This document shows, in pieces, positions 1-5,554 of a stretch of DNA of 5,554 nt; position 1 is the first letter of the stretch, and each line of letters begins with the position of its first letter. Both the position numbers and the translations under genes were made by a program. The stretch is from IMG/VR virus record IMGVR_UViG_2706794685_000013; one strand, 5' to 3'. The DNA comes from a virus. Lineage: Duplodnaviria; Heunggongvirae; Uroviricota; Caudoviricetes. A model generated the notes under the pieces. It made no database searches. It was not told the DNA's origin and worked only from the letters and a program-made list of their open reading frames with translations.

Positions 1-406
1 GGGACGGAAGTCGCTGTCGTTCTCAAAATCGGTGGAGCTGCATGACAAAGTCATCGGGCATTATCTGAACATAAAACACTATCAATAAGTTGGAGTCATT
101 ACCCGATATCCTGCTGAGAACATAAACACCCACGGATCGAGGCGTACGCTATCATGTTGCTGTGCACCGCCCAGTTTATAATTGGCGATGGTATCGATAT
201 CCATGTACCACACTGACATGTTTTAAAAAATGCAATAAGACATTGTATCTGAAAGAAAAAACAGGATTTTGAGGCGCTTTTTTATACCGTTTTCCGTGTT
301 TTTAACTGCCTGATTTTATTGAAATCTTTTTTAGTTTTGCAGAAAGGATTTTTTGCTCGATCGCTTTAATTTTATACATTCCTGATAACGGAAATTTTTT
401 TGCCCG

Positions 407-1600: not shown

Positions 1601-1760
1601 AACCGCAGCACGTTCCTGCATACGACGTGTCTGCGGCATAATCCCAATGATTACTCCCTGACAGGATTTGCAGGCCACTCAATATCAGGTGCAGTTGATG
1701 TATCAACACGATTCAACAATACCCGATATTTATTCCATGCCTCCAGCAACGATCTTTCTT
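1601..1760. repeat. Direct repeat copy A (about 140-160 bp): 3' end of a tfa gene plus its 3' hairpin; partner is 2651-2800
   Basis: Long identical stretches shared with 2651-2800 (for example ctgcggcataatcccaatgattactccctgacagg and ccactcaatatcaggtgcagttgatgtatcaacacg), with scattered substitutions and one 1-nt indel. Confidence 0.85.
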
Positions 1761-1884
1761 CCTCCGTTGCGATTTCCAGATCTACAGCATCCTGCAGTGG
1801 CGCAATATACTCACTAAATTCCTGGATGTAGAACTGTGTGGTGACGGTCTTCCAGCCATTCGGCTCCTGCTGTATCGAAGCATA
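1651..1884 (-). pseudogene. tfa: Tail fibre assembly protein (lambda Tfa-like), C-terminal 77-codon fragment lacking a 5' portion and start codon
   Basis: Minus-strand translation ...[54 protein letters not shown] closely matches the lambda Tfa C-terminus as I recall it (...[55 protein letters not shown]). Stop TAA at 1653-1651; the frame is closed upstream by TAG at 1887-1885. Confidence 0.65.
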
Positions 1885-1988
1885 CTAGGCTATTTCAATA
1901 TCGCTATGCTGCGGCAGCATTTAACCCCTTGTAATTCATCGCCATAATTGATTTAATTCACAAATAAAACTATAACATGGTGAAATCA

Positions 1989-2645
1989 ATGAAAACAAAC
2001 ACAGATGATGGGGCTAAAATTTACACACCACTTACCCTAAAGCTTTATGACTGGTGGGTTTTGGGAGTATCAAATCGGCTTGCATGGGGATGTCCTACAA
2101 AGGAACACCTTCTTCCACACTTTCTGGAACATTTAGGTAACAACCATCTGGATATTGGTGTTGGAACTGGGTTTTACCTTACTCACGTACCTGAGAGTAG
2201 TCTGATATCTTTAATGGATTTGAACGAAGCTAGCCTGAACGCGGCATCTACAAGGGCTGGGGAATCAAAAATTAAACATAAAATTAGCCATGATGTTTTT
2301 GAACCTTATCCCGCGGCGTTACATGGTCAATTTGATTCCATTTCCATGTTTTACCTTCTTCACTGCCTGCCTGGAAATATATCTACAAAAAGCTGTGTAA
2401 TACGCAATGCGGCGCAGGCCTTAACTGACGATGGAACTCTATACGGAGCCACAATTCTTGGCGATGGAGTTGTGCACAATAGCTTCGGTCAAAAACTGAT
2501 GCGCATTTACAATCAGAAAGGCATCTTTTCAAACACAAAAGATTCCGAAGAAGGCTTAACACATATACTCTCAGAGCATTTCGAGAATGTTAAAACCAGG
2601 GTTCAAGGTACTGTAGTAATGTTTTCCGCTTCAGGGAAAAAATAG
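1989..2645 (+). CDS. Class I SAM-dependent methyltransferase, small-molecule/protein/RNA type, not a DNA methyltransferase (alternative start ATG 1977)
   Basis: Rossmann-fold motifs in order: motif I LDIGVGTG, acidic post-I LMDLNEASL, motif II FDSISMFYLL, motif III LTDDGTLYGATI. No DPPY/NPPY or PCQ/ENV DNA-methyltransferase motifs. GGTGA lies 5 nt upstream of ATG 1989. Visibly AT-rich relative to flanking phage genes. Confidence 0.8.
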   Translation: MKTNTDDGAKIYTPLTLKLYDWWVLGVSNRLAWGCPTKEHLLPHFLEHLGNNHLDIGVGTGFYLTHVPESSLISLMDLNEASLNAASTRAGESKIKHKISHDVFEPYPAALHGQFDSISMFYLLHCLPGNISTKSCVIRNAAQALTDDGTLYGATILGDGVVHNSFGQKLMRIYNQKGIFSNTKDSEEGLTHILSEHFENVKTRVQGTVVMFSASGKK

Positions 2646-2652
2646 CATCCAA

Positions 2653-2685
2653 CCGCAGCACGTTCTTGCTTAAGACGTGCTGCGG
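2653..2685. other. Perfect 11-bp inverted repeat (ccgcagcacgt / acgtgctgcgg) with an 11-nt loop; likely the tfa 3' hairpin or terminator. Imperfect counterpart at 1603-1636
   Basis: Reverse-complement symmetry read directly. On the minus strand it follows the tfa-fragment stop, on the plus strand it follows the methyltransferase stop. Confidence 0.4.
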
Positions 2686-2699
2686 CATAATCCCAATGA

Positions 2700-2789
2700 T
2701 TACTCCCTGACAGGGTTCGTAGGCCACTCAATATCAGGTGCAGTTGATGTATCAACACGGTTCAGCAACACCCGATACTTTTTCTAGGC
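2700..2789 (-). pseudogene. tfa: tfa 3'-end fragment (last 29 codons), fused in frame to the pin fragment; has an internal TAG where copy A has TGG (Trp)
   Basis: Minus-strand translation [28 protein letters not shown], collinear with copy A ([29 protein letters not shown]). Confidence 0.6.
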
Positions 2790-3026
2790 TTCCACCACCA
2801 GCACGACAAGATGCCGCATACAGTGCCCCAGTCAGTCCAGTTTTCAGACAACCAGTGCGTCACCTTTTTGAAGGCGCTTTAAAGCACGTTTTAATCCAGG
2901 TCGGCCTGTCCTTGTTCCGCTTAATTTATCTTCAAATATTTGTTCATATCCTGCACAAACAAGAGCGTTTCGTTGCAGGTCTGTATTCTGGTCATTTGTT
3001 GATACCCTTACATAGCCAATCAGCAC
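2790..3026 (-). pseudogene. pin: Serine invertase of the Pin/Gin/Hin/Cin family, N-terminal 79 codons only, with GTG start and two in-frame TGA stops
   Basis: Translation VLIGYVRVSTNDQNTDLQRNALVCAGYEQIFEDKLSGTRTGRPGLKRALKRLQKGDALVV*KLD*LGHCMRHLVVLVVE matches Pin/Gin (MLIGYVRVSTNDQNTDLQRNALVCAGCEQIFEDKLSGTRTDRPGLKRALKRLQKGDTLVVWKLDRLGRSMKHLISLVGE), including the catalytic Ser in VRVSTNDQ. Stops replace Trp61 (TGG to TGA) and Arg65 (CGA to TGA). GGGAG lies 6 nt upstream of the GTG. No resolvase C-terminus or DNA-binding domain follows. Confidence 0.8.
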
Positions 3027-3080
3027 GCTGAATCTCCCGTCCAAAAGCACAAATCATGCCATGCAGGCCAGAAACCGCCA

Positions 3081-3106
3081 TTATCTAAAACCTCGGTTTA
3101 CGAGAA
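3081..3106. other. Invertase crossover site (gix/pix/cix-like 26-bp imperfect palindrome), TTATCTAAAACCTCGGTTTACGAGAA
   Basis: Reverse complement TTCTCGTAAACCGAGGTTTTAGATAA matches the gix consensus TTCCTGTAAACCGAGGTTTTGGATAA (as recalled) at about 24 of 26 positions. It sits between the invertase start and the start of the tail-fibre variable cassette, as in Mu, P1 and e14. Confidence 0.7.
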
Positions 3107-4067
3107 CTCGGCACAAGCGGGGAGAAAATACCGTTACTCAGTACAGCGAATACCTGGACTAATCGACAAACATTCAGCGGTGGCCTTTCTGGTGAACTAT
3201 CCGGCAATGCTTCTACAGCTGCAAAATTAAAAACTGCCAGGAAAATAAGCAATGTGGCTTTTGATGGTTCCTCCGATATCACATTAAAAGCAAGTCATGT
3301 TGGTGCGTTTGCCTTAGGGAAAACAGGAAGCACCGTTGCGAATGATAAAGCAGTTGGATGGAACTGGAGTAGCGGAGCCTATAACGCAACNNNNNNNNNN
3401 NNNNNNNNNNNNNNNNNNNNNNNNNNNNNNNNNNNNNNNNNNNNNNNNNNNNNNNNNNNNNNNNNNNNNNNNNNNNNNNNNNNNNNNNNNNNNNNNNNNN
3501 NNNNNNNNNNNNNNNNNNNNNNNNNNNNNNNNNNNNNNNNNNNNNNNNNNNNNNNNNNNNNNNNNNNNNNNNNNNNNNNNNNNNNNNNNNNNNNNNNNNN
3601 NNNNNNNNNNNNNNNNNNNNNNNNNNNNNNNNNNNNNNNNNNNNNNNNNNNNNNNNNNNNNNNNNNNNNNNNNNNNNNNNNNNNNNNNNNNNNNNGGTAA
3701 TTCGATTGTATTGGGTGATAATGACACGGGCTTTAAACAAAAAGGCGATGGTAATCTGGATGTTTATGCTAATAACGTCCATGTTATGCGCTTTGTCTCC
3801 GGAAGCATTCAAAGTAATAAAACCATAAATATTACGGGACGTGTTAATCCCTCGGATTACGGTAACTTTGATTCCCGCTATGTGAGAGATGTCAGACTTG
3901 GCACACGAGTTGTTTAGACCATGAAGAAAGGCGTGATGTATGAAAAATCAGGCCATGTAATCACGGGGCTTGGTATTATCGGTGAAGTCGATGGTGATGA
4001 TCCGGCAGTATTCAGACCAATACAAAAGTTAATTAACGGAACATGGTATAACGTATCGCAGGTATAA
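3089..4067 (+). pseudogene. stf: Side tail fibre variable C-terminal cassette (Sv), promoterless and not joined to a constant region in this orientation; masked 3391-3695; in-frame TAG at 3915-3917
   Basis: Open frame from inside the crossover site: NLGLRELGTSGEKIPLLSTANTWTNRQTFSGGLSGELSGNASTAAKLKTARKISNVAFDGSSDITLKASHVGAFALGKTGSTVANDKAVGWNWSSGAYNA... After the gap: [122 protein letters not shown], which matches the lambda-type Stf C-terminus. The two flanks are in different frames if the N-run length is literal. Confidence 0.8.
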
Positions 4068-4069
4068 TC

Positions 4070-4603
4070 ATGCAGCATTTAAAAAACATTGTCGCAGGTA
4101 ATCCAAAAACCGTTGAACAATACCAGCTAACAAAGAATTTTGATGTTATCTGGTTATGGTCCGAAGATGGAAAAAATTGGCATGAGGAATTAAAAAACTT
4201 TCAGGAGGATACAATAAAACTGGCTTACACAGTTGAGGGAATAATTATTGCTATAGACAAGGATGTATCAGCAATTAATCCAGAAGGTTTAAGTGTCGTT
4301 GAGTTGCCTGATATTACAGCAAATCGCCGGGCTGATATTTCGGGCAACTGGATGTTCAAAGATGGTGCGGTGATAAAGCGAACTTATACCGAGGAAGAGC
4401 AAAGGCAACAAGCGGAAAATGAAAAGCAGAGCCTGCTGCAGCTCGTCAGGGATAAAACCCAGCTGTGGGACTCTCAGCTACAGCTGGGCATCATTTCCGA
4501 TGAGAATAAACAAAAATTAACCGAGTGGATGCTCTATGCGCAGAAGGTTGAATCCACAGACACCTCCAGCCTGCCAGTAACGTTTCCCGAACAACCAGAA
4601 TGA
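4070..4603 (+). CDS. tfa: Tail fibre assembly protein Tfa (lambda Tfa / Mu U family)
   Basis: 177-aa [25 protein letters not shown]...[32 protein letters not shown] is 2 nt after the tail-fibre stop (TAAtcATG), the usual stf-tfa coupling. Confidence 0.9.
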
Positions 4604-4606
4604 GAG

Positions 4607-4636
4607 AAGGCCCGCTATCGGGCCTTAATTTTTATT
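4607..4636. terminator. Bidirectional intrinsic terminator between the convergent tfa genes: stem aaggcccg / cgggcctt (8 bp, loop ctat) followed by aatttttatt
   Basis: Perfect 8-bp GC-rich hairpin with a T tract, placed between the stops of the two convergent tfa genes. Confidence 0.6.
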
Positions 4637-5159
4637 CAGGCTTTTGTGGCCATTCAGGATTTGCCGTATCCACACGGCTGACCAGAACACTGTAGCGTTC
4701 CCATGCTTCCAGTCGTGTGCGTTCCTCGTCTGTTGCCATATTCAGCCTGACAGCTCGTTCCAGCGGCTGGATGACTGATTCAGCTTCGGAAAGCAATGCG
4801 GCCTTTTGTGATTCGGCCTGTTGTTGCAGTTCCTGTTCTGTATATTCCCTCTTTACTACTTTACCATCCAGAAACATCCATTTTCCGTTATTGTCTGCGT
4901 GACGATTTGCCGTAATATCAGGAACTTCAACTATGCTTAGCCCTTCAGGATTAATAGTTGAAACGTCTTTACTGACAGCAACGATGATGTTGTTCTCATC
5001 GTAAGCAATTTTTATGGTGTCTGGCTGAAAATTCTTTTGTTCCTCATACCAGTTTTTGCCATCTTCGCAAAAGAGCCATACCACGCCCGCTTTTTTAGTT
5101 AGCTGGTATTGTTCCGGTGTTTTCGGATTCCCGGCCTTAATATTTTTCAGGTGCATCAT
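4632..5159 (-). CDS. tfa: Tail fibre assembly protein Tfa, alternative copy on the opposite strand (Mu U-prime type)
   Basis: 175-aa [33 protein letters not shown]...[35 protein letters not shown] at 5159-5157 is 1 nt after the upstream fibre stop, with GGGGAG upstream. The longer ORF in the track uses an upstream TTG and is not preferred. Confidence 0.9.
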
Positions 5160-5160
5160 C

Positions 5161-5449
5161 TTAAACACTCCCCACGTTGTACCATATTCCCCCAATCAAT
5201 TTCTGAATTGGCCTTCTGGCAACAGTGTCGACAATATCATCCGCATTGCTGTTAATTGCGGCTGTTAAAACATAACCTGACGCATCGCCAAAGCCGTAGT
5301 CGCGCCATACGTTTTTATATTCAATGCTGCCAAGACGAATATCCCGAACGACATGATTATGCAGCCATGTGCTTAACCAGTTGTTTTCCCACACTGAACC
5401 ATAAATATCGCCACTAGACGCAACTTGCGCACCACTTCCCAGCGCAAAT
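5161..5449 (-). pseudogene. stf: Alternative tail fibre variable cassette (Sv-prime), C-terminal fragment only, truncated at its 5' side by the IS insertion
   Basis: Translation ...[95 protein letters not shown] shares the C-terminal [12 protein letters not shown] signature with the other cassette. The upstream part of the ORF in the track (MSVKLRLPQ) is IS-derived sequence. Confidence 0.75.
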
Positions 5450-5554
5450 TGAGGTAGCCTGAGTTTAACGGACACTCCTTCCTGAAATAGAATGGCATCA
5501 GAAGGAGCTAATAATGAGCAGAAAAACCCAACGTTACTCTAAAGAGTTCAAAGC
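5450..5554 (+). mobile_element. IS3-family insertion sequence (IS600-like), left end and start of orfA; continues beyond the window
   Basis: Element end begins TGAGGTAGCC (IS3-family ends start with TG), followed by AAGGAG and ATG at 5514 opening an ORF MSRKTQRYSKEFK..., which I recognise as the N-terminus of IS3-family OrfA proteins. Tail-fibre homology stops abruptly at 5449-5450. Confidence 0.6.
5514..5554 (+). CDS. IS3-family transposase OrfA, first 13 codons only (partial at window edge)
   Basis: AAGGAG 6 nt upstream of the ATG; MSRKTQRYSKEFK is typical of the start of the IS3-family OrfA helix-turn-helix region. Confidence 0.5.
   Translation, partial: MSRKTQRYSKEFK

Follow-up and report, generated by a model that had tools for sequence, protein, structure and literature searches.

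The window analysed here, a stretch of 5,554 nucleotides from a tailed-phage record (IMGVR_UViG_2706794685_000013), contains on its minus strand, from 3026 down to 2700, a single frame that begins as the 5′ part of a DNA invertase gene (78-79 codons), continues in frame as the 3′ end of a tail fibre assembly gene, tfa (about 30 codons), and is interrupted by three stops. The locus raises the questions of how two gene ends came to be joined in this way, whether what is left of the invertase still serves any purpose, and what has become of the tail-fibre inversion switch beside it. Judged from the sequence, the feature is an old scar of recombination, without function, that lies where two modules of a decayed E. 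coli/Shigella lambdoid prophage meet; it is a product of ordinary prophage decay. We report the anatomy and parentage of its parts, the breakpoint, the distribution of the junction, the order of its stops, and precise gix-to-gix inversions that took place after the truncation; what goes beyond an initial annotation of the frame is the Gin parentage and three-part mosaic structure, the precise position of the breakpoint, the case for a fusion between elements, the stop order, and the switch that appears to be operated in trans in other strains.

A chimeric frame with three stops

Translation of the minus strand from 3050 to 2690 reads VLLDGRFS-VLIGYVRVSTNDQ..., with a GTG start at 3026-3024. 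The frame is made up as follows.

2826..3026, minus strand: Gin-type DNA-invertase 5′ stub, codons 1-67 (identity to Mu gin, phage matches, Pfam Resolvase)
2795..2825, minus strand: pinE/cin-like patch of the stub, codon 68 to the first base of codon 78 (pinE match)
2794..2795, minus strand: recombination joint, an invertase-derived G at 2795 followed by a tfa-derived T at 2794 (parental alignment)
2700..2794, minus strand: 3′ end of a lambdoid tfa, codons 78-108, with TAG at 2786-2784 in place of Trp, and TAA at 2702-2700 (PhiR26_1 alignment, Caudo_TAP)

Counted from the GTG, the premature stops are TGA at codon 61 (2846-2844), TGA at codon 65 (2834-2832) and, in the tfa part, TAG at codon 81; the TAA is the terminal stop. 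Trp61 and the tfa Trp were each lost by a single change, TGG to TGA and TGG to TAG, respectively, and the stop at Arg65, CGN to TGA, is likewise counted among the single changes from parental codons. On retranslation, the coordinates, codon counts and three stops given in the initial annotation all proved correct, and its figure of exactly 79 invertase codons is right within the ambiguity of the joint, which lies inside codon 78, codon 79 (GAA) being common to both parents.

With the stops repaired, Pfam places Resolvase on residues 3-83 (E=6.9e-22; profile positions 2-91 of 145) and matches residues 79-105 to profile positions 104-130 of the 131 in Caudo_TAP (E=3.8e-12). Since blastn likewise recognises both halves, the in-frame fusion of an invertase 5′ part to a tfa 3′ part, as initially proposed, holds. 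In RefSeq, PGAP labels the two halves as pseudogenes, namely ‘recombinase, missing C-terminus’ and ‘tail fiber assembly protein, missing N-terminus’.

The codon for the Ser9 nucleophile is kept in the stub (YVRVSTNDQ). The Resolvase domain ends prematurely at residue 78 and is interrupted by the stop at codon 61; helix E, which serves oligomerisation, is absent, as is the helix-turn-helix domain for DNA binding at the C-terminus, all sequence past codon 78 being tfa. The full Caudo_TAP domain, of about 130 profile positions, is absent as well; the intact PhiR26_1 homologue has 194 aa. The invertase had been called clearly inactive, and with about 60% of the protein missing, including helix E and the DNA-binding domain, and a stop at codon 61, we agree. 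This verdict holds for the gene but not for the switch, as the adjacent segment still inverts at gix sites in other strains (see below). By descent, the feature is best classed as a fragment of an invertase gene, and not as a member of the Din family in the sense of a working protein.

The invertase part is Gin-type and ends in a pinE-like patch

In a codon-aligned comparison, nt 1-201 of the stub match Mu gin at 191 of 201 positions (95%), the P88-type and JJ2434 invertases at 188/201, and pinE at 141/201 (70%). From nt 202 to 237, it is pinE that matches, with 31 of 36 positions identical (86%) and a perfect run of 27 nt; Mu gin matches at 19/36, and gin overall at 53-56%. When region 3120..2825 was compared with phage genomes, it showed 91-94% identity to the gin regions of Mu, D108, SfMu and P88-type P2-like phages; the blastn alignment with a P88-like gin region has 279/296 identities (E=6e-133). 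K-12 pinE is about 70-75% identical to the stub overall, and K-12 pinR and pinQ gave no nucleotide match to it. With Mu/D108/SfMu/P88-type Gin at 91-95% nucleotide identity against these values for pinE, Pin parentage was rejected. The ‘Pin homology’ of the initial annotation is therefore confirmed as regards an invertase, but the type is Gin, and likeness to pinE is confined to the ~35 nt that precede the joint; the alignment it had proposed, against pinE, pinR, gin and tfa, maps the breakpoint to 2795|2794 with gin, not pin, as the closest relative.

A gin-like nt 1-201 followed by a pinE-like nt 202-237 means that the stub is itself a gin/pin mosaic, with the switch at around codons 64-67. 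No phage invertase in the phage genome collection matched across both the gin-like and the pin-like part. A query composed of the stub and the 3′ half of pinE, meant to find an intact relative, returned pinE itself and nothing else, and exact look-ups of the YbcY and U proteins for contexts with an intact invertase led in every case to the same locus with the same stub. Position 2826, read in minus-strand sense, is G in the window and T in each of the 14 other distinct alleles, and 2827 is also polymorphic; both positions lie at the gin-like to pin-like switch.

Two further features lie upstream of the GTG.

3027..3080, minus strand: invertase leader/spacer between gix and the GTG (collinear with the P88-type and Mu gin upstream regions)
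3081..3106, plus strand: gix-type 26-bp crossover site, TTATCTAAAACC TC GGTTTACGAGAA (matched once in the window, against a chance expectation of 0)

The leader/spacer is the most polymorphic part among the alleles. The layout resembles that of the Mu G segment and gin, also found in D108, SfMu and P88-type P2-like phages: the 26-bp sites have the same gix core, the S-U / U′-S′ architecture is the same, and the invertase starts ~68 bp from the gix centre, as in Mu-type gin, to which nt 1-201 are 91-95% identical. Unlike in Mu, only 78 invertase codons remain, and these contain stops; the constant part of the fibre is a lambdoid Stf N-terminal domain, where Mu has S; and tfa′-ybcY lies downstream, where Mu has com/mom. 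The e14 P segment with pinE, in K-12, is likewise a Din-family tail-fibre inversion switch in a cryptic prophage, and it is pinE that the last ~35 nt of the stub resemble; however, pinE is intact in K-12, and the overall nucleotide identity is only ~70-75%.

The tfa part belongs to a lambdoid Tfa-YbcY-TfaX end module

Window positions 1696-2797 are 99.2% identical to the lambdoid phage PhiR26_1, and the blastn alignment with its tfa region has 156/158 identities (E=7e-79), the TAG being the only mismatch downstream of the joint. In PhiR26_1 the gene order is Stf, intact Tfa, YbcY on the opposite strand, and a short Tfa remnant; DLP12 of K-12 likewise has tfaD-ybcY-tfaX. The corresponding features of the window are listed here.

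1977..2645, plus strand: intact ybcY-type class I SAM-dependent methyltransferase gene, 222 aa (Pfam Methyltransf_12/23/25; YbcY in PhiR26_1)
1651..1830, minus strand: tfaX-type tfa 3′ remnant (repeats; PGAP ‘tail fiber assembly protein, incomplete’)
2653..2685, no strand: inverted repeat with an 11-bp stem, CCGCAGCACGT...ACGTGCTGCGG, between the convergent ybcY and tfa′ (read from the sequence; conserved in PhiR26_1)

The window thus has a tfa, a convergent ybcY, a tfa 3′ remnant, duplicated tfa ends and a shared hairpin. A 90% direct repeat, 1601-1748 and 2651-2797, flanks ybcY and corresponds to the 3′ ends of tfaX′ and tfa′, each with its downstream hairpin; the joint truncates the right copy at 2797. 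DLP12 and PhiR26_1 share this gene order, the hairpin and the doubling of the tfa 3′ end, but the functional tfa of the module is reduced in the window to its last 30 codons. The inverted repeat probably acts as a terminator in both directions. A 45-aa ‘hypothetical protein’, WP_001309429.1, annotated in many genomes and corresponding to 2590-2727 (minus strand) of the window, spans the 3′ end of ybcY, the hairpin and the end of tfa′, and is probably a spurious gene call.

The joint separates DNA of two ancestries

Across the joint the window reads GTG CTG GTG G|TG GAA GCC, the pinE-like parent GTG CTG GTG GAG GAG TTG, and the tfa parent TCA TTG CTG GAA GCC. A crossover at 2795|2794 accounts for the sequence with zero mismatches. 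Contiguous identity between the parents at this point consists of TG on the left and GGA on the right (TGGAGGA versus TGCTGGA), i.e., a microhomology of at most 3-4 nt. The short nucleotide similarity initially noted at the join is therefore present, but minimal, and the joint has the marks of illegitimate recombination with minimal microhomology. Since every allele seen has a stop ahead of the join, it makes no difference that the two parts share a frame.

For comparison with an allele in which tfa is whole, we used a query consisting of the window from Rha to the end of tfa′, extended by the rest of the intact PhiR26_1 tfa. This query is covered to at least 80% in 365 genomes, and all 25 matches listed cover it in full at 99.0-99.3% identity. 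Strain TUM2826 carries such a sister prophage at the same trp/ompW site, with the order trpA, ompW′, Ash, Rha, DUF4376′, tfaX′, ybcY, and then an intact Tfa, a 3.4-kb Stf, Lom and J; the invertase is absent. TUM2826 and EC958 are 99.935% identical over 6,199 bp, and this identity stops exactly at the equivalent of window position 2797. Past the breakpoint, similarity does not resume until the N-terminal region of stf, at 84%. Compared with the sister allele, the stf N-terminus, lom and J have identities of 84-92%, and the exchange lacks a sharp left-hand boundary. Near-identity up to the breakpoint and 84% beyond it imply that the joint separates DNA of two ancestries, which favours recombination between elements over deletion within one. 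Because the left boundary is not sharp, the fusion event may have happened in another phage and have been brought in later by homologous exchange.

We consider it very probable that the feature is the recombination scar of a lambdoid prophage, arising from a cassette fusion, followed by decay, with inversion in trans persisting elsewhere. In this mechanism, a Mu/P2-type invertible cassette (S-like fibre end, U, U′, S′ and gix sites), whose gin-type invertase was already a gin/pin hybrid, would have become linked, through illegitimate recombination, with the right-end module Tfa-YbcY-TfaX of a lambdoid prophage at the trp/ompW locus. The crossover would have fallen inside codon 78 of the invertase and codon ~166 of tfa, at a microhomology of at most 3-4 nt, leaving 78 + 30 codons in one frame. 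The frame match is incidental; the TGA at codon 65 is found in every sampled allele, and the TGA at codon 61 and then the tfa TAG came later. That the fusion took place in a single step is inferred: a donor element with an intact gin/pin-hybrid invertase was looked for in the phage genome collection and none was found.

A local deletion is an improbable alternative. Here, the prophage would once have carried a full invertase, residual stf and a complete tfa in the same orientation, and a microhomology-mediated loss would have run from codon 78 of the invertase to codon 166 of tfa. The two genes are indeed co-oriented, as expected if a Mu-type S-U-U′-S′-gin block had inserted upstream of tfa, and there is short similarity at the joint, the sequence of which, by itself, does not distinguish deletion from fusion. 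However, an intermediate with a full invertase and a full tfa was found neither in the ~45 loci read nor among the top E. coli matches, a search that was non-exhaustive; the sister allele at the same locus is a plain Stf-Tfa arrangement without invertase; and identity of 99.93% up to the breakpoint only, with a different lambdoid lineage at 84% on the other side, is the pattern expected for exchange between elements. The initial proposal of a ‘microhomology-mediated deletion or fusion’ is thus narrowed by the TUM2826 sister allele, with fusion between elements favoured and local deletion disfavoured.

It is highly improbable that the joint arose by aberrant site-specific recombination, with the invertase joining a pseudo-gix site in its own gene to one in tfa. 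Din invertases occasionally use secondary sites, and the locus is full of gix-related activity; but neither parental sequence at the joint resembles AAACCNNGGTTT, and the sole match to gix in the window (allowing up to 3 mismatches) is that at 3081-3106. A pseudo-gix site at or near 2795 was accordingly rejected.

The junction is widespread and its stops accumulated in order

Among 5,426 complete E. coli genomes, 426 cover at least 80% of window positions 2600-3120 at ~99% identity, including NCTC86 and ST131 strains such as EC958. Nine further assemblies of 4.8-5.0 Mb, rich in IS1 and IS3-family elements, which we take to be Shigella, also carry the junction, and six of the nine are 100% identical to the window over 2640-3120. 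Metagenomes were scanned with a junction pattern in which the three stop positions were left degenerate, and 15 contigs were found to carry it; the same pattern gave no matches in a collection of species-representative genomes. Whether other genomes share the chimera, a point raised by the initial annotation, is thus answered in the affirmative by both the complete genomes and the metagenome contigs.

The TGA at codon 65 is present in 15/15 of these contigs. Six of the 15 have TGG at both Trp61 and the tfa Trp, one has TGA at Trp61 with TGG at the tfa Trp, and the rest have all three stops. These combinations give an order of events: the joint (with or after the Arg65 TGA), then the Trp61 TGA, and then the tfa TAG. 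We read this order as the stepwise decay of an already dead gene.

Despite the in-frame join and the fact that two of the three stops are TGA, there is next to no chance that the stops and junction are sequencing or assembly errors or that read-through yields a functional fusion, given that identical junctions and stops recur in dozens of independent complete genomes and in metagenomes, that a read-through product would lack invertase residues 80-190 (helix E and the helix-turn-helix) and all but 27-30 Tfa residues, and that the stops pile up stepwise, in the manner of a neutral pseudogene. The artefact reading was ruled out on the grounds that NCTC86, EC958, 4/0, 4/1-1 and ~20 other independent complete assemblies carry the same junction with the same three stops, which also disposes of the sequencing errors considered in the initial annotation.

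The junction is found in at least three flanking contexts. In two metagenome contexts, L031 and L043, it has other neighbours, with homology to the window ending at 2713. L031 has a G-like segment beside the junction and, downstream, a 443-aa GGDEF protein, ybhB and bioA, whereas in L043 the surrounding element is e14-like and has both a P-type segment and a leader resembling that of pinE. Its recurrence shows the junction to be real and old. In itself it is of little weight, being one more pseudogene scar of modular phage evolution that RefSeq already records as two partial genes; as a marker it is useful, in that it is unique, widespread and dated by successive stops.

In both metagenome contexts the junction lies beside a gene for a 443-aa membrane GGDEF protein (L031, 4380-8389; L043, 693-2024), which presumably resembles dgcX of O104:H4-type strains. 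The ybhB-bioA neighbourhood that follows in L031 is the attachment region of phage lambda.

In the lineage of the window the switch is also dead

Beyond the gix site, the window continues into an invertible tail-fibre segment and ends in an insertion element.

3107..5454, no strand: G-like invertible tail-fibre segment (80-85% nucleotide identity to the Mu and P88 G segments; ORFs; Caudo_TAP)
~3107-4067, plus strand: Sv, with an in-frame TAG at 3915-3917
4070-4603, plus strand: U/tfa
4632-5159, minus strand: U′/tfa
5161-5454, minus strand: Sv′, cut by the IS element
5455..5554, plus strand: left end of an IS3-family element (HTH_Tnp_1 and rve ORFs at this place in L009/L011, identical to the window)

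We assume the IS3-family element at 5455 to be IS600-like. At the other end, window positions 1-103 are the 3′ end of an IS1 copy. In L009 and L011, lysis genes follow the IS3-family element. One gix site is present in the window (3081-3106) and one in L009; two inverted crossover sites flanking the segment are not present in the window. The arrangement indicates that the lineage of the window lost Sc, the tail genes and its second gix site through insertion of the IS3-family element together with a deletion. With the second gix removed, nothing can invert there. In addition, the Sv end is broken by the in-frame TAG into two ORFs, 3336..3917 and 3921..4067. Invertase, switch and tail fibre are all dead in this lineage.

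At the Sv codon corresponding to 3915-3917, the metagenome relative L031 has Q (CAG). The fibre variant of the other orientation would be truncated; it is annotated as 875 aa + 48 aa in L026. Masked runs of N in the window, at 891-1145 in the Rha gene and 3391-3695 in the Sv gene, are unmasked in L009-L017.

In other strains the segment has inverted after the invertase was lost

A gix site with an inverted partner is found in L001, L002, L010, L013, L029 and L030, as well as in Mu and P88; among the relatives of the window, the second site is present where the prophage has been kept whole. Two pairs of loci carry the segment in opposite orientations. L010 and L013 have flanks that are 100% identical and the same three-stop stub, with the gix-to-gix segment reverse-complemented; the same is true of ST131 isolates 4/0, from a urinary infection, and 4/1-1, from faeces. 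The stretch inverted between the gix cores is 2.9-3.1 kb in both pairs, and the inner gix half-sites are exchanged between orientations, CGAGAA for CAGGAA (...TTTACGAGAA versus ...TTTACAGGAA). Long inverted repeats able to support homologous inversion were found in none of L010, L013, 4/0 and 4/1-1. Homologous recombination was therefore rejected as the cause in both pairs, and the inversions are taken to be site-specific. Across genomes with at least 80% coverage, the orientation of the window was counted in 374 and the other in 152. These figures are rough, because matches to the P2-like locus enter the count, being included in the 374, and long repeats of the NCTC86 type distort it as well.

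Since the inversions postdate the truncation, an invertase must act in trans. An intact 199-aa invertase, WP_000905061.1, is encoded in a P2-like prophage with near-identical gix sites, and its 3′ part, which is missing from the stub, is found at 100% identity in 4/1-1, 4/4, EC958, JJ1887 and many others. The helper is most likely the invertase of this co-resident P2-like prophage; strain 4/0, which has the inverted orientation, may be without it. A parallel is provided by PinQ, which inverts the P segment of e14, so that the segment of one cryptic prophage is flipped by the recombinase of another prophage (Kirigo et al. 2025, PMC12529663). The likeness lies in a tail-fibre segment of a cryptic prophage being flipped by a recombinase from elsewhere in the genome (PMC12529663); the difference is that e14 keeps its own pinE, whereas here the resident invertase is destroyed and inversion would depend wholly on the helper. 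The junction shows that a tail-fibre inversion switch can survive the loss of its own recombinase and go on switching with one that is borrowed.

The stub probably also retains a cis-acting element. For Hin, the Fis-dependent enhancer is 65 bp long and lies ~100 bp from hix (PMC3798978); the Gin stimulating site is placed ‘within the invertase gene’ in a statement there that cites Kahmann et al. 1985 (PMC3798978). Between the GTG at 3026 and the joint at 2795, 232 nt of invertase sequence survive; over the first 121 of them, 2947 is the one position at which the window departs from Mu gin. The stretch equivalent to the enhancer by position, ~3005-2940, is therefore kept, and identical to Mu gin except at 2947. 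With one difference in 121 nt, the Fis-dependent enhancer is very probably retained, by analogy with Hin and Gin, and the stub could have enhancer function. Among the 15 distinct alleles, there was no signal of stronger conservation in the enhancer-equivalent stretch than in the rest of the stub, and hence no evidence of selection on it. Fis-like 15-mers of the form G-N13-C were discarded as enhancer evidence, being too frequent.

We raise, tentatively and as something that we consider rather unlikely, the idea that the stub has been kept for its enhancer. By analogy, the switch would then be a non-autonomous inversion element, consisting of gix sites and an enhancer without an enzyme, and run by an invertase from a P2-like or Mu-like prophage in the same cell. 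Such an element would be comparable to a defective transposon that depends on a helper, and would account for the occurrence of one and the same stub next to three kinds of flanking module. Isolates 4/0 and 4/1-1 offer a clean natural system for studying dependence on both the helper invertase and the enhancer.

In NCTC86 (L001), the ends of the segment, 6478-7789 and 9475-8184, form a 1.3-kb inverted repeat (85% identity), and the two inner gix half-sites do not differ in type, which points to gene conversion or to a different cassette. Homologous inversion through this repeat is possible in NCTC86. In the ST131 and Shigella-like versions, the segment ends are unrelated outside gix.
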